Notes under the pieces: model-generated
What the model was told of the DNA's origin: nothing
Database searches by the model: none
What the model saw: only the letters and a program-made list of their open reading frames with translations
Assembly (NCBI GenBank): GCA_018093385.1
Contig: GCA_018093385.1_4808.1
Reading direction: 5' to 3' (one strand)
Source: a phage
DNA: 64,000 nucleotides
In this document: positions 1,046 through 13,209 of the stretch, in pieces
Numbering within the stretch: the first letter of the stretch is position 1
How the letters are laid out: each line of letters starts with the position of its first letter
Position numbers and translations under genes: made by a program

Positions 1046-3379
1046 TTATTTCGCTGATTTCAGCGCGGCTATCTCTGCCTCTAGTGATTCAACCTTTTTC
1101 ATCAACTCCTGCACCACGTGCATCGTGTCAAGAAGCATTGGAGTTGTGTCTAGTTGTTTTTGTTCAACCTCTACGCCTTCGCTCGGATAGAATTTCACCG
1201 TTTTTACATACAACGGGTCAATAATCTCTGCTTGTTGAGCGATGACACCCCTTCTTACCCTTTCCTTTTCATCATTGTTGTAAATAAATGTCACATATTC
1301 CAACGATGAAAGGTTGCTCCATGCTTTTTCAACCGTTCCTGGCTGTATGTCATGCTTCAAATTCTCATCAGAGATGGCATTCTTTTGAAGAGTATAAAAG
1401 CTATCTGATCCAAGAATTGATACAGAGAAAAACACATCATGAGAGTTAGGCTGTATGTTCATCCTTGTCTGGTACTGCGCATTATCATCTCCAACGACGA
1501 GCCAAGTGCCCTGCGCAAAACTTCCGTTATTGTTGTGGATCAAACCGTGGTGAAGCGTTGTGGCATAACCTGTATCAACCTGTTGACCGCCGCTAAAAAG
1601 ACTGTTGAAAGCATAGTTTTGACCCATTGACTGTCTCACCGTTGCATAGGTGCCGATTCTTGTTCCAGTCTCACTCCAAGACATTAAGCTTCCATATCTC
1701 GCGGCGAATCTGTCGCTGCTAAGAGTTCCTGCATCATCAAATGCAAGGTCTTTAGTCACCCCTTTTGTTTTATTGTACACAGACAGTATTGCATAATAAA
1801 ATCCATCCATGTATGCATCGCATCGCAATCCGGCATCAGCTTCAACAACAGTACCAATTTTGTATTGTGCCCTTACTTGCCCTGAAGACCCCTTAACCCC
1901 AGAGCCTGGTCGAACAGAATCCGCATTGATAACTGACCATTGCGTATTCGCGGCAACAAAGCCACCAGATGCACGAATCACCCAAACACCGACAAAGTTG
2001 CGCGGCACGATTTCAGCCGCTGATCTTCCGTATACAGGGCTTGATCGAGAAGCGTCAAAGTTTGTTTGTATGAATCTTGAACCAGAACCTGCTGCTGCTG
2101 GAGAGTCCCCAGAAGTGATCGACTGAAAAGCGCCATTAGTCGCCACCTGACTTGGCGCAGAAGCCAACGTGACCATTGTGCGCGGCGCGGAGTAAGTTAT
2201 ATTTGGTGCACCTGACTCAGAAACGACTCCATTTGATGATGGATTGCCTCCATCACCTCGACCGAACAGGGCCTGAATAGAACCCGTCTGCACGCCGTTT
2301 CGGTCCGGCACACGAAATGTTGTCGTTCCGTTACCTAAAGAGTATTTACCGCGTTTCGCTGGGTCCGCTAACCAATCTGCATCTGCAATAGGTGAAAGCA
2401 TTTGCGCATACGCCCAAAGTTCAGGCCAGTCAGCGCGGTTTAACAACTGCCCATCAGCAACGACTTCATACGGTTGAATATAAGCACGGCTGTCGCGTAA
2501 GTGGAAGTCACCGACGCCATAGTTCATAACGCCGTTCATACTTGGTCCAACGGTGCCTGTGTTTACTAAGTTCTCAACCCAACGCTTGGTCGCGGCATCA
2601 TGATCGTTTACTGGGTCACCAGCAAGCGGTGTTGCACCTTGTGGACGAATATTCAACCATGCTTGCGCATTGTCGGCTGACCCTGTGCCGCCCATAGAAG
2701 TCGGAACGATGTTTTGATCAGCGACTGTGCCAAATCCAAAAGCGGACTTCATACCCTGAATGGTAGTTTGGCCTGTGCCGCCGTTGGCGACTGGGATTAT
2801 GCTTGACTCGGAATAAATCATGACCCAAGGAGACCACGTGCTATTTTGAGCGTTGAATCTTCTTTGGTAAGTATTGTTAATGGAATATGATGTGTATTTT
2901 TGAATGCAACTTTCGGTCGATACTCCTGTTTGCAACACCTCTAAGACTCCTGCTTGTTCAACAGGATAGTTCAATCCAAAAGAGGCGGCGCCATCAGAGT
3001 TCTGATAATATTGCCCAAACCAGCTGCCGGTAAGAGCATTAAGATTCATGCCGGAAGGAACAGTGCCAAAATTTCGCAAGGTATTGGTCAAAGTCGCAGC
3101 AGTTGTTCGAATGGAAAGCATGTCACCAGCCGCCCATGCACGCGCTGCAGTTCCTTCCTGCGCACGCTGCACGGTTAGCACGTTTCCAACTACGGCTGTT
3201 ACTGTGACGATTTCAAATTGGAGGCCTGTTGCAGCGTCGACGATTGTCGCCACTACACGCTCGTTCGCGGCCAAGGTCGGAAAGCCCGACCCTGAGCGGA
3301 TTGTGATTGTGGTGTCTGAAGTCGTCGTTGGCTGGGCAAGCGCGACCTCAAAGTTGTTTTTGAATATTAGCCTTGGCAT
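1046..3379 (-). CDS. tail fibre/tailspike protein with C-terminal intramolecular chaperone (peptidase S74-like) domain
   Basis: 777 aa; C-terminal region SDENLKHDIQP...GVIAQQAEIIDPLYV...LEAEIAALK resembles auto-cleaving chaperone domains of phage fibres/endosialidases; Gly/Ser/Thr-rich central part. Confidence 0.6.
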   Translation of the reverse strand: MPRLIFKNNFEVALAQPTTTSDTTITIRSGSGFPTLAANERVVATIVDAATGLQFEIVTVTAVVGNVLTVQRAQEGTAARAWAAGDMLSIRTTAATLTNTLRNFGTVPSGMNLNALTGSWFGQYYQNSDGAASFGLNYPVEQAGVLEVLQTGVSTESCIQKYTSYSINNTYQRRFNAQNSTWSPWVMIYSESSIIPVANGGTGQTTIQGMKSAFGFGTVADQNIVPTSMGGTGSADNAQAWLNIRPQGATPLAGDPVNDHDAATKRWVENLVNTGTVGPSMNGVMNYGVGDFHLRDSRAYIQPYEVVADGQLLNRADWPELWAYAQMLSPIADADWLADPAKRGKYSLGNGTTTFRVPDRNGVQTGSIQALFGRGDGGNPSSNGVVSESGAPNITYSAPRTMVTLASAPSQVATNGAFQSITSGDSPAAAGSGSRFIQTNFDASRSSPVYGRSAAEIVPRNFVGVWVIRASGGFVAANTQWSVINADSVRPGSGVKGSSGQVRAQYKIGTVVEADAGLRCDAYMDGFYYAILSVYNKTKGVTKDLAFDDAGTLSSDRFAARYGSLMSWSETGTRIGTYATVRQSMGQNYAFNSLFSGGQQVDTGYATTLHHGLIHNNNGSFAQGTWLVVGDDNAQYQTRMNIQPNSHDVFFSVSILGSDSFYTLQKNAISDENLKHDIQPGTVEKAWSNLSSLEYVTFIYNNDEKERVRRGVIAQQAEIIDPLYVKTVKFYPSEGVEVEQKQLDTTPMLLDTMHVVQELMKKVESLEAEIAALKSAK

Positions 3380-4792: not shown

Positions 4793-6253
4793 ATGAATAA
4801 AATATTAACACATAATTGGAAATTCATGTACCAGTTGAATCCTGCTTTAAAAGAAGTCTGGAAGACAAAAGCGCGATACAAAGTGATATACGGCGGTCGT
4901 GCATCTTCCAAATCGCACGATGCCGCTGGTTTTGCTATTTATTTGGCGGCAAACTTCAAATTAAAATTCCTTTGCGTTCGACAATTCCAGAACAAGATTT
5001 CTGAATCTGTATATACTCTATTAAAAGACAAAATAGAGATTTCTGATTTTAAAGATGAGTTCAATTTATTAAAGAACTCTATCGAACACAAAAGAACTAA
5101 ATCTGAATTTCTATTTTATGGTATCGCACGTAACGTTGATGAAATCAAATCAACAGAAGGCGTTGATGTTCTTTGGCTGGAAGAAGCGCACGCGCTTACT
5201 GAAGAACAGTGGGACATTATTGAGCCGACAATACGTAAAGAAGGGTCCGAAATATGGATCATCTTTAACCCTGATGAAGAGGCCGATTTCGTATATCAAA
5301 ACTTTGTTATGCGACCGCCGAAGAATGCCATTGTTAAAAAGATAAACTGGCAAGACAATCCATTTTTGTCGCAAACGATGCTGGACGTTATTGCAGGCAT
5401 GTACGAGCGTGACCCGAAAAAGGCAGAGCACGTTTATGGCGGCGTGCCGAAGACTGGCGGCGACAAATCTGTAATCAACCGCGCATTCGTTAAGGCCGCG
5501 CTTAATCTACACAAGCACCCCACGCTGGGCTGGAGTTTGTCAGGGTCTAACCGTATAGGCTTTGACGTAGCGGACGATGGCGACGACCTTAACGCCACTG
5601 CATTCGTCACAGGAAACGTATTGCGCGGCATCAAGACGTGGGAAGGCCTGGAAGATGAATTGTTGAAATCGGCAAGCGGAGTTTGGAAAGATGCGCTTAC
5701 ATTCGGCGCTTCCATAACTTATGACGCCATCGGTGTCGGCGCTTTTGCTGGTTCAAAATTTGATGAACTAAACGAGTATGCAATACATGAAAATCCATCA
5801 TTTCCAAGAATCGAATTTAATGCGTTCAACGCGCAAGGGTCTGTTGATGATCCTGATGACGTTTTTCTTGAATTACCACACGTTGAAATACTCAATAAAG
5901 ACCATTTCGCAAACATAAAAGCGCAAAAATGGACTGAAATTGCAGAGAGATTCAGAAAGACATACGAATATGCAACTGGGCAAGCCGTATATCCGACTGA
6001 TGAATTGATTTCAATCGACACCGATGGTATACCGGAACTTGGGATTCCAGCTTGGACTACTGAAGAGATTGAGACGTTTCTTTTTGAGATGTCAGCGCCG
6101 CGCAAGGATACATCTGTTCTTGGTAAGTTCAAAGTTGAATCTAAAAAGGACATGGCAAAGCGCGGAGTCAAATCACCTAACAAAGCGGACGCAGCAATCA
6201 TGGCATTGATGAAACCAATCGTTGCAGCATCCGGCTTCTTCTCTAACCTTTAA
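4793..6253 (+). CDS. terL: terminase large subunit
   Basis: Walker A-like YGGRASSKS, Walker B-like VLWLEEAH, C-terminal nuclease-like region; 486 aa; precedes portal. Confidence 0.85.
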   Translation: MNKILTHNWKFMYQLNPALKEVWKTKARYKVIYGGRASSKSHDAAGFAIYLAANFKLKFLCVRQFQNKISESVYTLLKDKIEISDFKDEFNLLKNSIEHKRTKSEFLFYGIARNVDEIKSTEGVDVLWLEEAHALTEEQWDIIEPTIRKEGSEIWIIFNPDEEADFVYQNFVMRPPKNAIVKKINWQDNPFLSQTMLDVIAGMYERDPKKAEHVYGGVPKTGGDKSVINRAFVKAALNLHKHPTLGWSLSGSNRIGFDVADDGDDLNATAFVTGNVLRGIKTWEGLEDELLKSASGVWKDALTFGASITYDAIGVGAFAGSKFDELNEYAIHENPSFPRIEFNAFNAQGSVDDPDDVFLELPHVEILNKDHFANIKAQKWTEIAERFRKTYEYATGQAVYPTDELISIDTDGIPELGIPAWTTEEIETFLFEMSAPRKDTSVLGKFKVESKKDMAKRGVKSPNKADAAIMALMKPIVAASGFFSNL

Positions 6254-6256
6254 CAA

Positions 6257-6496
6257 TTAAAGCATTCCGTGCTGAAGGTCTAGTTTTCTTGCAGCAAATG
6301 ACCTGGCACGGAATCGCTTACCCGCTCTTACTGCCTGCCGAATCTTCTTTTGCATACACTTACGGTCAAAATCGTTGCGGTCAACGGCTTCGAGCAAATC
6401 CCGACGCAAAGCACCTAGTGTCGCCTTTTCGGATACTTCTATGCCCAGCGCGGCTGCAACGTCTTTCAAAACATCGAGTTCGGTTAATGTTCTCAT
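6257..6496 (-). CDS. small basic protein with HeH/SAP-like N-terminus
   Basis: TLTELDVLKDVAAALGIEVSEKATLGALRRDLL helix-extension-helix-like motif; Arg/Lys-rich C-terminus; opposite strand to flanking TerL and portal. Confidence 0.45.
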   Translation of the reverse strand: MRTLTELDVLKDVAAALGIEVSEKATLGALRRDLLEAVDRNDFDRKCMQKKIRQAVRAGKRFRARSFAARKLDLQHGML

Positions 6497-6909
6497 TTGA
6501 TAATCCCCTTGATGTCTGATTCAGCCATAAAAATGGGAGTGCCGTTTCCAGGAACGATTGAGCGGGTAATTTTGTCAAACAGATCGCCTTCCTCGACATG
6601 AATCTTGTAAAAGAGATTCTTGGAGTTCGAAGGGCACAAACCGATGAATTTGCCGATGCCGCGCACGCATTCATCTTCAAAGTATACCGTTTCACCTTCG
6701 AGAGATTCGATGCTCTGGACAGGGTATACTTTACGACCCATAAGCCATTCGTCAAGCGTCGCCTGCAACACGTTTCGCGAATCTAAAATCCATGGGTCAA
6801 TTTTCGCATCAGGGTATCGCGCGGCTGTCGCCTTTGCCAATTCTTCATATTCGCAGACGTTGACAACTTCGCCTTCGTGGATAACTACAAATACAATTGT
6901 TGTGCTCAT
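6493..6909 (-). CDS. hypothetical protein (138 aa)
   Basis: ORF in track, 4-nt overlap with downstream gene; no recognisable motif. Confidence 0.45.
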   Translation of the reverse strand: MSTTIVFVVIHEGEVVNVCEYEELAKATAARYPDAKIDPWILDSRNVLQATLDEWLMGRKVYPVQSIESLEGETVYFEDECVRGIGKFIGLCPSNSKNLFYKIHVEEGDLFDKITRSIVPGNGTPIFMAESDIKGIIK

Positions 6910-7070: not shown

Positions 7071-9446
7071 ATGAAAATTCTTGGCATAAAACTCTGGGAG
7101 AAGACGCAACCAGAAGCCGAACCAGCGGAGATGCCGCCAGGCGACCCATTGGCACCGTTTGAACGCCTTGAAAGGCGCGGCAGCGGTCAACGCTGGGAAA
7201 AGACTGAAAGCAATCGACCGACCTTTAAAACGGTTGATGACTTCCCTTTATATGAGCCTGATATCAACGGGGACGGCGTTGCAATCATCAAAGGTCGCTC
7301 AGTAGATTCAGCAACCGTATCCAAAAAAGTTATGGATAATGCCTTAAAGAACATCAGTTCAGAAGGGCAGGTGAATCCATACACAGTGCCTATTCAGTTG
7401 CAAAACTGGTACTTGTCGCAGTCATTCATCGGCTATCAAGCTTGCGCCATCATCGCGCAGCACTGGCTGGTGAACAAGGCTTGTTCCATGGTAGGTCGCG
7501 ATGCGGTCCGTAAAGGCTGGGAAGTCAAATCCAGTTCTGAGTCGGAATTGTCAGTACAGGCCAGCGAACGCCTAAAGCAAATTGATAAAGAATTTAATAT
7601 CAAAGAGCACTTAGTTGAAGCCGAACGATTCAAGAATATTTTTGGCATCCGCGTCATCATATTTGATGTGCGCAGTGATGACCCAGAATATTATAGTAAA
7701 CCTTTTAACATCGATGGTGTGACAAAAGGGTCTTATAAGGGAATCATTCAGGTTGACCCTTATTGGATGATGCCATTCTTGACGTCTGAAAACACTGCAG
7801 ACCCTGCGTCACAGCATTTCTATGATCCAGAATACTGGGTTATCAGCGGACAGCGTTATCATCGCAGCCACCTAATCATCTTGCGCAACGATGAGCCAGC
7901 TGATATTCTCAAGCCGACTTATATCTACGGCGGCATTCCTCTGACTCAGCAGATTTATGAACGTATCTATGCCGCTGAACGTACCGCTAACGAAGCGCCA
8001 TTGCTGGCGATGTCTAAGCGTACAACCACGCTGCGGACCGACGTTGACAAGGCGATTGCCAATGAGCGGTCGTTTGCCGAACGTCTGATGATGTGGATTA
8101 AGTACCGCGACAACTATGCGGTAAAAGTGCTTGGTCAGAAAGAAGAGATGGACCAGTTTGACATCAACTTGTCAGACTTCGACAGCATCATCATGAACCA
8201 GTACCAGCTGGTGGCTGCAATCGCAAAAGTGCCGTCGACGAAGCTATTAGGGACGTCACCTAAAGGCTTTAACGCCACTGGTGAGTTCGAGATGGTCAGC
8301 TATCACGAAGAATTGGAAACTTGTCAGCAGCACGATTTGACGAAGATTCTGGACCGTCACTATAAAATCCTTTTGAAATCTGAAGGTGTTGAAGTCGACG
8401 TTAAAGTGGCATGGGAGCCAGTTGGTTCACTTACTGCTACTCAGCTTGCAGAGATTAACGACAAACGAGCGAATACTGGTAAGACTCTCATTGATGCTGG
8501 CGTCATCTCCCCTGATGAAGAGCGCGACCGCATCAAGGACGACAAAAACAGCGGCTACAACCGTTTGCCAGAAGATACAGCAGAAGAAACCCCAGGGATG
8601 TCTCCAGAGAATATGGCATTGCTTGGCAAGTCTGCTGGTGAAGTTCTGCAAGGTAAAGCCGATATTGAACAGGCCAAAGCTGATGTCGTCAAGATGGGCG
8701 GCCAGTTCTATAGTGAGACTGGTATCATGCCGGAAGGTGCCGCGCGCGGTGAGTTGGCAGAAAACCCTGACAGGGCGCCAGTTGAGATCAACATGGATGA
8801 TACCGATGACGAATCAAGCCATCAGGTTGATGTCCTAACGCAACTGAAAGAAGGTCTGGAGGGTATTGCTGACTATTACCTTAAAGAAGGTCAGGATGTG
8901 GATTTTGACCCTCAAAAAGACGCAAGGTCTGTGCAGCCGTCTACCCTTCCAAGCGTAAAAGGCAATGTAGTCAACTTGCGCCACAATGTAGGGAAGATGG
9001 ATGCCTCATCGCTGCCTAAGATGAAGTTGCACGGGATGATTCTTGGTATTGAGAATCCTCGCAACAGCATTCGCAGGGGCAACAGCCTTGATGGTGAATG
9101 GGCAGTTAAGATGCCGCACCATTACGGATTTATCAAAGGCACCAAGGGCGCTGATGGTGATGAAGTCGACTGCTTTGTTGGACCAAATATGAAGTCGCCT
9201 AAAGTATTCATCATTAACCAAAATGATAATTATTCTGGCGAATTTGATGAACACAAGTGTATGCTTGGATTTGATTCAGCAGAAGAAGCGAAAGAAGCTT
9301 ATCAAGCATCATTTGGTAACGGTTGGAATGGATTTGACTCAATCCACGAATTGGATGTAAACTCATTCAAGGAGTGGTTGAAGGGTGATTGCTCTCAAGC
9401 ATATGGAGCACTCAATAATCCTACTAATTCACCGAAGCAAGGTTGA
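7071..9446 (+). CDS. portal protein with C-terminal extension
   Basis: 791 aa ORF between TerL and MuF-like gene (synteny); C-terminal ~120 aa carry pyrophosphatase-like motifs (see findings). Confidence 0.55.
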   Translation: MKILGIKLWEKTQPEAEPAEMPPGDPLAPFERLERRGSGQRWEKTESNRPTFKTVDDFPLYEPDINGDGVAIIKGRSVDSATVSKKVMDNALKNISSEGQVNPYTVPIQLQNWYLSQSFIGYQACAIIAQHWLVNKACSMVGRDAVRKGWEVKSSSESELSVQASERLKQIDKEFNIKEHLVEAERFKNIFGIRVIIFDVRSDDPEYYSKPFNIDGVTKGSYKGIIQVDPYWMMPFLTSENTADPASQHFYDPEYWVISGQRYHRSHLIILRNDEPADILKPTYIYGGIPLTQQIYERIYAAERTANEAPLLAMSKRTTTLRTDVDKAIANERSFAERLMMWIKYRDNYAVKVLGQKEEMDQFDINLSDFDSIIMNQYQLVAAIAKVPSTKLLGTSPKGFNATGEFEMVSYHEELETCQQHDLTKILDRHYKILLKSEGVEVDVKVAWEPVGSLTATQLAEINDKRANTGKTLIDAGVISPDEERDRIKDDKNSGYNRLPEDTAEETPGMSPENMALLGKSAGEVLQGKADIEQAKADVVKMGGQFYSETGIMPEGAARGELAENPDRAPVEINMDDTDDESSHQVDVLTQLKEGLEGIADYYLKEGQDVDFDPQKDARSVQPSTLPSVKGNVVNLRHNVGKMDASSLPKMKLHGMILGIENPRNSIRRGNSLDGEWAVKMPHHYGFIKGTKGADGDEVDCFVGPNMKSPKVFIINQNDNYSGEFDEHKCMLGFDSAEEAKEAYQASFGNGWNGFDSIHELDVNSFKEWLKGDCSQAYGALNNPTNSPKQG

Positions 9447-9447
9447 T

Positions 9448-10299
9448 ATGGCTTTTAAAGCTTCGAAAAAACGTGAACGTCGCTCGCCCGATAGAATCGG
9501 GCGCGGCAGTCCGATAATCCCATCCAACGCTATTGCGATGGCCTATCGTCGTGAGATGAAAGGTCTTTGCTATGCGATGATTGACGACTATCAAGCAGGA
9601 ATTGCTGAGTGGCTTGAAAAGAAGCAGGTTAAAAAGTTCTTTGCGCAAGACTCTGCTGATTCAACTTTTCAGACCTTGATGAAGCGACTGCAACTGAAAT
9701 GGGCAAAAGCTTTCGCCCGTGTCGGGTCAAAGATTGCCGCAGATTTCATCAAGTCAGTTGAAAAGGGTGCCACTTCTGCTACATTTGCAAGTCTTAAATC
9801 TGCAGGAATAGAAGCGCCAAAAGCCACATATAATAAATTCGTTGAGAACACTCTTAAAACAAGCGAGACGTTCAACACGACTTTAGTGACTAAGGTTGGC
9901 GAAGATATTCACAACAGGGTGTACGAAGCGGTGATGCTTTCGCTTACTTCGCCAGACCCAGCGCAACAAGGCACGTCCGGCATTCAGGCGGCATTAAGGA
10001 ATGTAAAACACTTCTCTGCAAAACGCGTAGACCTTATTGCAAAAGACCAAACAAGCAAACTTTATTGCGTATTAAGTGATGAAAGGATGCGACAGAATGG
10101 CGTTGAGGAATTTGAGTGGGCGCATTCAGGAGCAGGAAAAGAGCCGCGAATATCGCATGAGCACGTCGACGGAATGAGATTTAAACTTGATGACAAGCGC
10201 CTATGGGAAGTTGGCGGCGAATTGAAGTTCAAAAAGGGTGACATCGGTCCTCCTGGATGGGCGATACACTGCAAGTGCAGAAAAATACCAATTATCTGA
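9448..10299 (+). CDS. head morphogenesis protein (Mu F / SPP1 gp7-like minor head protein)
   Basis: Position immediately after portal; ATG 9448 one nt after portal stop; size ~284 aa. Confidence 0.5.
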   Translation: MAFKASKKRERRSPDRIGRGSPIIPSNAIAMAYRREMKGLCYAMIDDYQAGIAEWLEKKQVKKFFAQDSADSTFQTLMKRLQLKWAKAFARVGSKIAADFIKSVEKGATSATFASLKSAGIEAPKATYNKFVENTLKTSETFNTTLVTKVGEDIHNRVYEAVMLSLTSPDPAQQGTSGIQAALRNVKHFSAKRVDLIAKDQTSKLYCVLSDERMRQNGVEEFEWAHSGAGKEPRISHEHVDGMRFKLDDKRLWEVGGELKFKKGDIGPPGWAIHCKCRKIPII

Positions 10300-10306
10300 G
10301 GTCATT

Positions 10307-11227
10307 ATGACGATACCAATCAACACATTCCCTCTATCTGGACAAACTCCAGTCTTGCCTGCGGTGTATGCTAATGGCTTGGCAATTGTCTCAGAATTCA
10401 CTTCTGATAAAAACTTGATTGTTCCACTGAGCCCGCCGCTTGCATCAGGGTATAACTCAGTAGGCCAATTCTTTATGATTGGCAATGATGGCGATTCGAC
10501 CAGCAAGCCTAATCTGACATTGTCTGTACCTAAGATGGACATCACAGACGTTCAAACTGGCTTGACTGCATCAACAATCACCATTGCTTTTGGAGAAGCG
10601 GTGATTATAGGAATGGAGTCTGGAGGGTCCAAGAATGCTGTCGCCGTTAAGGTAGTCAAATCCAGCGACAACCAATACACGTTACCAGCTGCGACGGCTT
10701 CCGTTCTCGGCGGCGTCAAAATAGGAAGCGGAATAAGCGTCGCAGGTGACGGTACAATTAGCGTCACTCAATACTCATTGCCGATTGCGTCAGCATCTAC
10801 TTTAGGCGGCGTAAAGGTCGGTACAACTCTATCAATTGATGGTTCCGGTGTGCTTAACGCAGCGGAAAGCACCGTCCAGAATGCCACGAACAGTGTTAGC
10901 AATCCTCCAACCACTTTGGTTAATCTGGCAACCTTAAACCTTCCTGCAGGAAAGTGGCTTGTGACGGCAAGTCAGTTGACTGTCGCGACAGCAGGAATTC
11001 AAGCGAACACCGGAATTACAGCCAAATTGTCAACAAGCGATTCAGATATTACGGATGATGCATTTACGATGTCAGCTGGCATTCGGGCTGCAGGTCGTTT
11101 CGGCGGCAATATTCCAACAAAGATAATTACTCTTGCCGCGCCTGGCGATGTGTATCTAAACTATCAATGCACAGATGCGTTGACATCTACCGTTTACGGA
11201 CAGATCACCGCAATCAAGCTGAACTAA
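10307..11227 (+). CDS. tail-fibre-repeat-containing protein
   Basis: Tandem motif YTLPAATASVLGGVKIGSGISV / YSLPIASASTLGGVKVGTTLSI typical of phage fibre repeats; ATG 10307 chosen over upstream track start. Confidence 0.5.
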   Translation: MTIPINTFPLSGQTPVLPAVYANGLAIVSEFTSDKNLIVPLSPPLASGYNSVGQFFMIGNDGDSTSKPNLTLSVPKMDITDVQTGLTASTITIAFGEAVIIGMESGGSKNAVAVKVVKSSDNQYTLPAATASVLGGVKIGSGISVAGDGTISVTQYSLPIASASTLGGVKVGTTLSIDGSGVLNAAESTVQNATNSVSNPPTTLVNLATLNLPAGKWLVTASQLTVATAGIQANTGITAKLSTSDSDITDDAFTMSAGIRAAGRFGGNIPTKIITLAAPGDVYLNYQCTDALTSTVYGQITAIKLN

Positions 11228-11790: not shown

Positions 11791-13209
11791 ATGCGAATGC
11801 AAACGGCACGCGAAATTGACAAAAATGGATTCTTGACGATTATGGGTTGTCCAATTTCGTCATTTGGCATTTTTGATTATTCTGCTGGTCAAGTTGGTCT
11901 TGATGGTGATCCGAATCGCATCGTAAAAGTCTATCGCCCTGAGTCAGCGGTGAAAGACCCCGAAGCGATAGATTCATTCAAAAATATCCCTTTCATCGAC
12001 AATCACGAAATGCTTTCTGGATTTGAAGGTGATGAGGATAACACAGCACCCGAAGAGTATGGAGTTGATGGCGTTCTGACTGGCAATGTTTATTATGACA
12101 AGCCATGGATGCGCGGCGACCTTAAAGTGTTTAGCCGTCGTCTGAAGAAGGCCATTGATTCTGGAAAGGTTGACTTGTCTTTGGGCTATGACTGTGAATT
12201 CATCATACAGTCTGGAGAGTTTGACGGGCAGCCGTATGAAGTGGTGCAGACAACTCTTCGCGGCAACCACATTGCTCTCGTGGACGTTGGTCGAGTACCA
12301 GGTGCACGGGTGCTGGATGGTCGTTGCTTTGACCATCTTTGTTTGACGACTGTAACACCATCCAACGAGGATTTAGACATGCCAAAACCGTTAAAAGGTA
12401 AAGCGCGTGATAATGCTGTTGAACAGCTGAAATCACTGATCCCTGCGCTCGAACAATTTCTGAATGAAGAGAGTACTGAAGCTGCTCATCAGGACGAAGT
12501 TGAAGTGAAAGCAGAAGAGAAGGACTCAACCGAAAATCGTGAAGAAGTAATGGTTGATCCAGAAGTCAAGGCAGAAGCAGAAGAAACCCCAGAAGGTGAA
12601 GAGAAGTTTGAAGTTGAAACTGAATCTCACGCCAGCGGCGAACTTCCGCAATTGATCAGCCAAATCGAAGCACTTATTGCAAAACTGAAAGGTGGCGCGG
12701 TAGGTGATGAAGAAGAAGTTGAAGCCGAAGTCAAAGACGAAGAAGTTGAAGTCAAGGCTGAAGATGTATCACCTTGCGACAAAGCTGAAGATGTGGTTAG
12801 CGGCCTGCAAAACAGCAACGTAAAGGGGGCTTCGGTCGAAAAAGATGACAAACCGACAAAAGCGGCGAAAGCGTCGCCAGGTCCAGCAAAAGGGGAACAC
12901 TCAATGGCATCTGATTCAGCAGTTGCTGCTTTCTACGCTGATTCTGCTCGTAAGAATAGCCTCTACCAGCGCCTGTCTAAAGTTGTTGGTGCCTTTGATC
13001 ATGCAACTATGGACTCCAAGTCCGTAGCGAAATATGGCGCTAAAAAGTTAGGCTTGAAGTGCGTTGATGGTGCTGAGTTTGACGTGGTGGATAATTATCT
13101 GCGCGGCGTTGAGCACGGTCAGAAACAGCGTGTAGTCGCAAAACAAAAGGCCGCTGCGGATTCTGCAGCAACTGACGAAGCATTTGAAGCTTGGTTGAAA
13201 GGGGAATAA
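11791..13209 (+). CDS. putative prohead protease/scaffolding protein
   Basis: Position before major capsid gene; long acidic low-complexity/coiled-coil middle (EVEVKAEEKD...); alternative start ATG 11797. Confidence 0.5.
   Translation: MRMQTAREIDKNGFLTIMGCPISSFGIFDYSAGQVGLDGDPNRIVKVYRPESAVKDPEAIDSFKNIPFIDNHEMLSGFEGDEDNTAPEEYGVDGVLTGNVYYDKPWMRGDLKVFSRRLKKAIDSGKVDLSLGYDCEFIIQSGEFDGQPYEVVQTTLRGNHIALVDVGRVPGARVLDGRCFDHLCLTTVTPSNEDLDMPKPLKGKARDNAVEQLKSLIPALEQFLNEESTEAAHQDEVEVKAEEKDSTENREEVMVDPEVKAEAEETPEGEEKFEVETESHASGELPQLISQIEALIAKLKGGAVGDEEEVEAEVKDEEVEVKAEDVSPCDKAEDVVSGLQNSNVKGASVEKDDKPTKAAKASPGPAKGEHSMASDSAVAAFYADSARKNSLYQRLSKVVGAFDHATMDSKSVAKYGAKKLGLKCVDGAEFDVVDNYLRGVEHGQKQRVVAKQKAAADSAATDEAFEAWLKGE

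Follow-up and report, generated by a model that had tools for sequence, protein, structure and literature searches.

Domains of the InPase family have been reported in the polyvalent proteins of phages, and the fusion of such a domain to the portal protein of phage BcepF1 has been cited among them (Iyer et al., 2017; PMC5512222). It was proposed in the same work that these domains are injected and act on a nucleotide-like substrate or on pyrophosphate (PPi), where the clearing of inhibitory PPi is one of the options (PMC5512222). In this work, we describe a portal-InPase fusion gene located at 7071..9446 on the plus strand of a phage DNA stretch of 64,000 nucleotides (contig GCA_018093385.1_4808.1; the whole stretch is referred to as the window). 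The gene consists of an open reading frame (ORF) of 791 residues and a stop codon, and the window belongs to a Wifcevirus-type Escherichia coli myophage. An earlier note, made from the sequence of the window alone, had proposed that a module resembling inorganic pyrophosphatase (PPase) is fused to the C-terminus of the portal protein. This proposal is borne out by the profile and fold comparisons reported here.

The portal protein of BcepF1 (gp124, P0337) is 53% identical to the window portal and exhibits the same architecture and the same predicted virion packaging. The gp19 portals of the Pseudomonas Pbunavirus phages Pa193 and E217 are also full-length homologues, where the core is ~58% identical and the C-terminal 170 residues match with E=2e-50. 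Their domain order is the same as in the window, and the surrounding gene order is the same in relatives. Residues 94/97-528 of 765 have been modelled in these two portals by cryo-electron microscopy (cryo-EM), where the C-terminal helical barrel points into the capsid. Residues 529-765 have no density, and a pyrophosphatase-like domain is mentioned in neither paper (PMC10329688, PMC11456595).

The window InPase shares the YGxI...DGDxxD motif with E. coli Ppa (PF00719). However, E. coli Ppa is a free hexamer of 175 residues per subunit whereas the window InPase is a tethered domain of ~123 residues. An enzyme joined to a head-internal carrier, or targeted together with one, and thus present in the capsid is also found in the T4 Alt ADP-ribosyltransferase and in MuF-fused toxins (PMC5512222). 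The window differs from those systems in that the portal takes the place of the carrier. The portal is not ejected, and delivery would need cleavage.

The portal-InPase fusion is already known. It was described computationally in 2017 (PMC5512222), the domain has its own Pfam family (PF18823), UniProt labels viral proteins as "Inorganic pyrophosphatase domain-containing protein", and a 99%-identical database protein (P0310) already has both precomputed Pfam hits. Therefore, the finding in the window correctly rediscovers a domain that had already been annotated and is not a new kind of element. What is added here is the concentration of virion peptides in InPase, the observation that two cryo-EM atlases neither model nor mention the domain, a comparison with E. 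coli PPase that states for each residue whether it has been kept or lost, and the description of the portal-fused clade as a distinct subfamily.

Identity and fold of the C-terminal domain

The window protein belongs to the portal family, where its core matches PF06381 with 295.8 bits against a curated threshold of 33.8. The core is homologous to the solved Pa193 gp19 portal (PDB 9b41), and it is modelled by AlphaFold2 with a predicted local distance difference test (pLDDT) score of 80-94. The coordinates of the core and of all other features are shown in Table 1.

The C-terminal domain matches PF18823 with 156.6 bits (cutoff 26.8; E=4e-46) over model positions 12-135 of 135, and the isolated C-terminus matches the same family with 160.2 bits. 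The AlphaFold2 model of residues 640-791 has a mean pLDDT of 90.4, and InPase reaches about 87-93 in the full-length model. The predicted fold is a PPase-type beta-barrel. PPases rank top in both fold searches, where the best 50 matches of Foldseek against the PDB are all family I PPases with E from 2e-4 and template modelling (TM) scores of about 0.3-0.5. The profile of the domain and 32 homologues was aligned by hhalign to E. coli-type PPases with 92% probability (E=6e-7) over E. coli residues 17-98. The PPase template profile in this comparison is shallow, with an effective number of sequences (Neff) of about 1.4-1.7; the relatives of E. coli Ppa that were recovered are all at least 82% identical, and a contig scan for ppa gave only enterobacterial ppa genes that are at least 90% identical.

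The matches to the classical PPase models are below their thresholds, with 18.2-20.8 bits over 25 residues only for PF00719 (cutoff 23.5) and 18.5 for NCBIfam NF002578 (threshold 246). Both matches span only the YGF...DGDEVD stretch. The C-terminal domain is almost certainly a genuine InPase domain of PF18823, and its fold relation to family I pyrophosphatases is real but distant. The limits of 9090-9443 that had been given for the domain in the earlier note need correction, as the folded domain starts 75 nt upstream of them, at 9015, and ends at 9383.

The signature of family I PPases is D-[SGDN]-D-[PE]-[LIVMF]-D-[LIVMGAC] (PROSITE PS00387). The DGDEVDC stretch (residues 695-701) fits this signature, as had been claimed, and it is the sole match in the six-frame translation of the 64-kb window. 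Residue frequencies predict about 0.007 such matches, and the mean number over 200 shuffles was 0.01. Since one match was observed against 0.007 expected, the signature is not due to chance. The sequences HHYGFIKGTKGADGDEVDCFVGP and GFDSAEEAKEAYQASFG that had been quoted from the 791-residue ORF are both present in it. The parallel that had been drawn between GFDSAEEAKEAYQASFG and the C-terminal segment GWENAEAAKAEIVASFE of E. coli PPase is not statistically supported, where the two segments are aligned by HMMER (-0.2 bits, i-Evalue 7e3) and by relaxed or global hhalign (per-column confidence of about 0-2) with no significance. This second parallel, insignificant alone, is what would speak for a chance resemblance of the motif in an unrelated extension. 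Such a resemblance is refuted by the PF18823 match, by the fold searches that return PPases, by the hhalign E-value and by the motif count, and we give it practically no probability.

Active-site residues and the portal-fused clade

Conservation was computed from two sets. The first set consists of 158 domain instances, which are the best representatives of a library-wide search and the window protein. The second set consists of 52 full-length portal fusions, down to 48% identity. The full active site of family I PPases, as established by mutagenesis, comprises about 14 residues (E20, K29, E31, R43, Y51, Y55, D65, D67, D70, D97, D102, K104, Y141, and K142). The window InPase has kept E20, K29 (as Arg), Y55, D65, D67, and D70. 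It has lost E31, whose counterpart G670 is an invariant Gly, and also R43 (deleted) and Y51, which fall in alignment gaps. The counterpart of D97 is D719, a position that is N or D in the family and is not conserved. The domain does not possess the full active-site set. The PPase mutant entries D65N, D70N, D97N, and R43Q are among the search matches.

E661, R668, Y685, D695, D700, D726, E727, and K729 are invariant in the portal fusions (52/52), and their conservation is 97% or higher among the 158 general InPase domains, which come from unrelated architectures. D697, the counterpart of D67, is at least 90% conserved in the portal fusions, and the 158 domains have either D (87%) or E (13%) at this position. 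The positions that are at least 90% conserved in the 158 instances (E, R, W, YG, T, DGD..D, Q, FDEHK, A, Y, W) have been kept in the window protein except for one Gly (N665). The DGDxxD block (residues 681-700) has a conservation of 0.84, which is the highest of all 20-residue blocks of the domain and is level with the portal core. The earlier note had named two findings that would speak against its proposal, a lack of profile similarity to pyrophosphatases and a motif that stands isolated. Profile similarity is present, and the counterparts of E20, Y55, and K29 (as Arg) are conserved along with DxDxxD.

The counterpart of FDEHK in E. coli PPase is ambiguous. The predicted hairpin topology would place it at E101/D102/K104, and a low-confidence relaxed hhalign alignment would place it at Y141/K142. 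Judging from the aligned residues, the metal-binding cluster appears intact, some phosphate-binding residues have been kept, and part of the pyrophosphate-binding basic shell is missing.

The several missing catalytic residues, the scores below the PF00719 and NCBIfam thresholds, and the invisibility of the domain in cryo-EM maps would fit a catalytically dead relic of a pyrophosphatase that has been retained as a spacer in the structure or for its interaction with the scaffold. We consider this very unlikely, as every one of the fusions has the acidic cluster together with Y685, R668, and K729, and the DGDxxD block is as conserved as the portal core. The column conservation points to purifying selection on the putative active site.

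All of the best 120 homologues of the full-length protein (120/120) have both PF06381 and PF18823, where the long contigs are ~65-75 kb. These homologues include BcepF1 and a Luteibacter phage protein that is named "inorganic pyrophosphatase" in GenBank. The C-terminal module matches 471 records in the phage genome collection, mostly Pbunavirus portals. A Bordetella phage portal with a core that is 43% identical has only 491 residues and no extension, and the six-frame search of its genome gave no InPase. Since the extension is absent from the Bordetella phage, the InPase module is an accessory accretion.

The InPase family is very large and consists mostly of virion-associated phage proteins, where a profile search of 1.84 billion representatives identified 12,274 proteins (50%-identity cluster representatives) with the domain. 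Therapeutically used Pbunavirus phages also have the domain in their portals. Most of the best representatives are giant polyvalent proteins, which are multi-domain proteins of 1,000-6,000 residues. The window-type portal core is found in none of the best 149 of the 12,274 representatives, and the portal-fusion clade was recovered by the full-length query. InPase can also stand alone, as in Vibrio phages. It is located at the N-terminus of a 573-residue ClpP-annotated protein in Tenacibaculum phage Larrie (L002 1734-3455), directly upstream of a 'structural protein' gene, and this ClpP-like protein is another head-internal carrier. A MuF-type 'minor head protein' is also among the carriers. 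PHROG families and BFVD structures exhibit InPase in DarB-like, "type I restriction enzyme", and "mega" proteins.

Five sister portals (P0324, P0333, P0382, P0397, and P0411) have InPase followed by a spacer and a C-terminal ADP-ribosyltransferase exoenzyme toxin domain (PF03496), which was confirmed by Pfam in P0324, P0333, and P0411. The gene order that surrounds P0324 (L086 8001-11966) is the same as in the window. Two further sister portals vary in other ways, where P0363 has ~240 unassigned residues past InPase and P0334 has ~280 extra N-terminal residues.

The region between the first core strand and the YG strand is shortened in the InPase family in comparison with PPases of solved structure (Iyer et al., 2017; PMC5512222). 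The window protein exhibits this shortening, with 24 residues from E661 to Y685 against 35 from E20 to Y55 in E. coli PPase, and the hhalign gaps fall there. The portal clade of the window differs from the other members of PF18823 in three characteristics. GNYxKG, which is N-terminal to InPase in 123/158 general domains, is present in 0/52 portal fusions and is absent in the window. LPKxKxxG is present in 32/52 portal fusions and in 1/158 general domains. The classical PPase signature, with Glu at the [PE] position, has been kept in 40/52 portal fusions and in 2/158 instances, a set that includes the domain of the window itself. The corresponding region in the window is residues 642-651 (8994-9023). 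By these motif counts, the portal-fused InPase clade is a distinct subfamily within PF18823, and the absence of GNYxKG does not exclude it from the family. Since this clade has no GNYxKG and has the canonical PPase signature, it could also be functionally distinct.

Location in the virion and possible role of the domain

The full-length model exhibits the core, a helix at residues 512-550, a disordered stretch, a helix at residues 582-602, a coil, InPase, and a disordered tail in that order. By homology to E217 and Pa193, the helix at residues 512-550 probably coincides in part with the barrel helix of the portal, which extends into the head. Tether residues 551-581 have a pLDDT of 30-36. The mid-tether helix at residues 582-602 (8814-8876) is predicted with moderate confidence (pLDDT 66-86). 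The tether statistics were computed on residues 521-648 (128 residues), which overlap the helix at residues 512-550. This segment is acidic in the window protein (25 D/E against 12 K/R), and its equivalents in homologues are 109-174 residues long. The mean column conservation in the 52 fusions is 0.78 for the core, 0.35 for residues 521-648, and 0.65 for the InPase domain, and the linker next to InPase has almost no conserved position.

According to the model, the InPase domain hangs inside the head from a mostly disordered tether of ~100 residues, outside the DNA channel. Twelve copies of InPase should be present above the portal in each capsid because the E217 and Pa193 portals are dodecameric. 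The earlier note had proposed that the fusion would place a phosphoanhydride-binding domain at the DNA entry/exit vertex. The domain does not lie in the DNA channel itself.

The portal gene is 97.8% identical to that of phage vB_Eco4M-7, for which supplementary virion proteomics has been published. All of those portal peptides (20/20) match the window ORF exactly, from the N-terminus through the core, linker, and InPase to the extreme C-terminus, and therefore the plus frame of the portal is translated. The InPase peptides are LHGMILGIENPR, MPHHYGFIK, GADGDEVDcFVGPNMK, VFIINQNDNYSGEFDEHK, and cMLGFDSAEEAK, and the extreme C-terminal peptide is GDcSQAYGALNNPTNSPK. Some InPase peptides have also been seen for ECML-117. 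Presence in the virion, as is expected of a polyvalent or capsid-delivered effector, is thus found in two close relatives. The N-terminal portal peptides 12-32 and 45-53 were found in the Wifcevirus virion, whereas the first 93 residues of the Pa193 portal were undetected by mass spectrometry (PMC10329688, PMC11456595).

Among the 559 portal spectra of vB_Eco4M-7, 427 belong to InPase, 50 to the linker, 40 to the N-terminal 121 residues, and 30 to the core, which comprises 399 residues (122-520) in this count. A difference in trypsin accessibility may explain this skew, and so may a stoichiometry or state of InPase that differs from the rest of the portal. The proteomics was a shotgun digest of a preparation that included a few non-structural proteins, e.g., DNA helicase, and all portal peptides listed are fully tryptic. 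Therefore, the peptides demonstrate the presence of InPase in the virion, and they would be the same for an attached and for a free domain.

In the reading that we prefer, with a probability of roughly 0.55, the portal is a carrier of InPase, and InPase is a hydrolase that acts early in infection. The portal C-terminus that points into the head would carry InPase as a packaged cargo enzyme. The domain would depend on Mg2+ and hydrolyse pyrophosphate or a nucleotide-like molecule that contains pyrophosphate. Its action would come when infection begins, once it has been released from the portal and has left with the DNA. The DUF2213 protease encoded in the same head module is the only candidate enzyme for this release. 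The identity and fold of the domain, the conservation of its residues, its presence in virions, the properties of the tether, and the accessory nature of the domain are shown by the results above, and catalysis, substrate, proteolytic release, and host delivery are inferred. A cargo enzyme is preferred to a part of the packaging motor because the domain is independent of the portal, is found on head-internal carriers, and is joined by a toxin domain in sister phages.

Several points weigh against this reading. No report of enzymatic activity for any InPase domain, or of a virion pyrophosphatase, was found in the literature. E31, R43, Y51, and D97 have no conserved counterparts by the alignments, so PPi need not be the substrate and hydrolysis of PPi itself is uncertain. 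After ejection, the portal remains behind in the capsid. Fully extended at 3.6 A per residue, the tether of ~128 residues would span ~460 A, while the tail apparatus of Pa193 and E217 measures about 1,300-1,500 A, and therefore InPase can reach the host only if it is severed from the portal. Neither a cleavage site nor a cleaved fragment has been documented, and delivery is the weak step. E. coli has an abundant pyrophosphatase of its own, and the gain from extra PPi hydrolysis is not obvious. The delivered-effector mechanism as such is tentative, and we place it somewhat short of even odds.

InPase may instead stay tethered in the capsid and work there and not in the host, where it would bind, for example, Mg2+ and DNA phosphates or a DNA end close to the portal barrel and would serve genome retention, headful sensing, or ejection priming. 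This is consistent with the portal being a permanent virion component, with virion peptides that extend from the N-terminus to the extreme C-terminus with no sign of trimming, and with a tether that is too short for the host. It is also consistent with the E217 portal barrel, which folds only with DNA present (PMC10329688, PMC11456595). However, the same domain is found in thousands of non-portal proteins, and it is missing from a functional portal whose core is 43% identical. The ADP-ribosyltransferase of the sister portals has no obvious use inside the capsid, and an acidic tether and an acidic active site are ill-suited to DNA binding. We consider a permanently tethered role unlikely.

A role in the producing cell, prior to or during assembly, has also been weighed, where new portal subunits would hydrolyse PPi or a related metabolite from intense phage DNA and RNA synthesis and packaging would be incidental. 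Such a role needs neither cleavage nor delivery, Wifcevirus phages have been reported as very fast replicators, and PPi clearance is among the options of Iyer et al. (PMC5512222). However, the portal is part of the late structural module, and by gene order most nucleic acid synthesis would be over when the protein appears, in a host with abundant PPase. InPase is also found systematically on head-internal carriers (portal, MuF-type, ClpP-like, and polyvalent proteins), which argues that packaging is the purpose. A producing-cell role is regarded as distinctly improbable.

Returning to InPase as portal-borne cargo, a more specific version is that the domain is cut by the DUF2213 protein, leaves ahead of or with the DNA, and counters host defences in the first wave by destroying a small molecule that contains pyrophosphate but is not PPi itself, e.g., an alarmone or an immune signal derived from a nucleotide. 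This version is speculative, and we hold it to be quite unlikely as it stands. Capsid exit of InPase, if shown, would mean that portals can carry injected enzymes, and with the ADP-ribosyltransferase that sister phages add to the same carrier, the C-terminus of the portal would become a general dock where injected effectors are loaded. Knowledge of the substrate would reveal what such phages must hydrolyse within seconds of the onset of infection. A tractable system is offered by the Wifcevirus phages in the BASEL collection, which grow on engineered E. coli K-12.

Head module and features of the window

The neighbours of the portal gene form a standard head module, where the portal gene has the large terminase gene on one side and the MuF gene on the other (Table 1). 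The portal ORF is matched at full length by phrog_4660 with 1268 bits.

Table 1. Features of the portal-InPase fusion gene and of the adjacent head module in the window.
Feature	Residues	Position	Strand	Remarks
Large terminase gene		4793-6253		Upstream of portal gene
Portal core	122-468	7434..8474	+	PF06381 Phage_portal_3, E=4e-88
Long C-terminal helix	512-550	8604..8720	+	DSSP on full-length predicted model
Tether	551-648	8721..9014	+	Mostly disordered, poorly conserved; one predicted helix, 582-602
InPase domain	649-771 (123 residues)	9015..9383	+	PF18823; trimmed family I pyrophosphatase fold
IENPRNSIR with E661 and R668		9051..9074	+	Counterparts of E. coli PPase E20 and K29 (hhalign)
Signature stretch HHYGFIKGTKGADGDEVDCFVGP	683-705	9117..9185	+	Y685, D695, D697, D700 = Y55, D65, D67, D70 (HMMER, hhalign)
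FDEHK	D726, E727, K729	9243..9257	+	Invariant acidic pair and lysine
GFDSAEEAKEAYQASFG	733-749	9267..9317	+	Second motif, after FDEHK strand; helix 737-746 (model)
Disordered C-terminal tail	772-791	9384..9443	+	pLDDT <50 for residues 782-791; conservation 0.29
MuF-like minor head protein gene		9448..10299	+	PF04233, phrog_324
Head-fibre-like protein		10238-11227	+	phi29-type head fibre motif PF11133, residues 131-170
DUF2213 / Pa193_gp24-type head maturation protease-scaffold protein		11791..13209	+	phrog_3778 'head maturation protease', E=1e-172; PF09979
Cement protein				Same head module
Major capsid protein		13844-14983		Matches family models only from residue 59 (PHROG) or 131 (Pfam)

The portal stop codon TGA is located at 9444-9446, and the ATG of the MuF-like gene is located one base further, at 9448. 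This spacing suggests that the two genes are translationally coupled. The late start of the family matches in the major capsid protein is consistent with the removal of an N-terminal segment by the neighbouring protease-scaffold protein.

Two other ORFs that overlap the portal gene have been rejected as spurious. They are a minus-strand ORF at 9006-9254 (82 residues) and an internal ORF in the +2 frame at 8386-8838, where the virion peptides prove that the portal frame is translated.

The head module is interrupted between the large terminase and the portal by small minus-strand genes at 6257-6496 and 6493-6909, neither of which has a Pfam or PHROG match. The syntenic position in L086 also has two reverse genes, one of which has DUF2786/DUF7168. 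Further upstream, a minus-strand gene at 1046-3379 encodes a tail fibre or spike of 777 residues with a C-terminal endosialidase-chaperone domain (Peptidase_S74).

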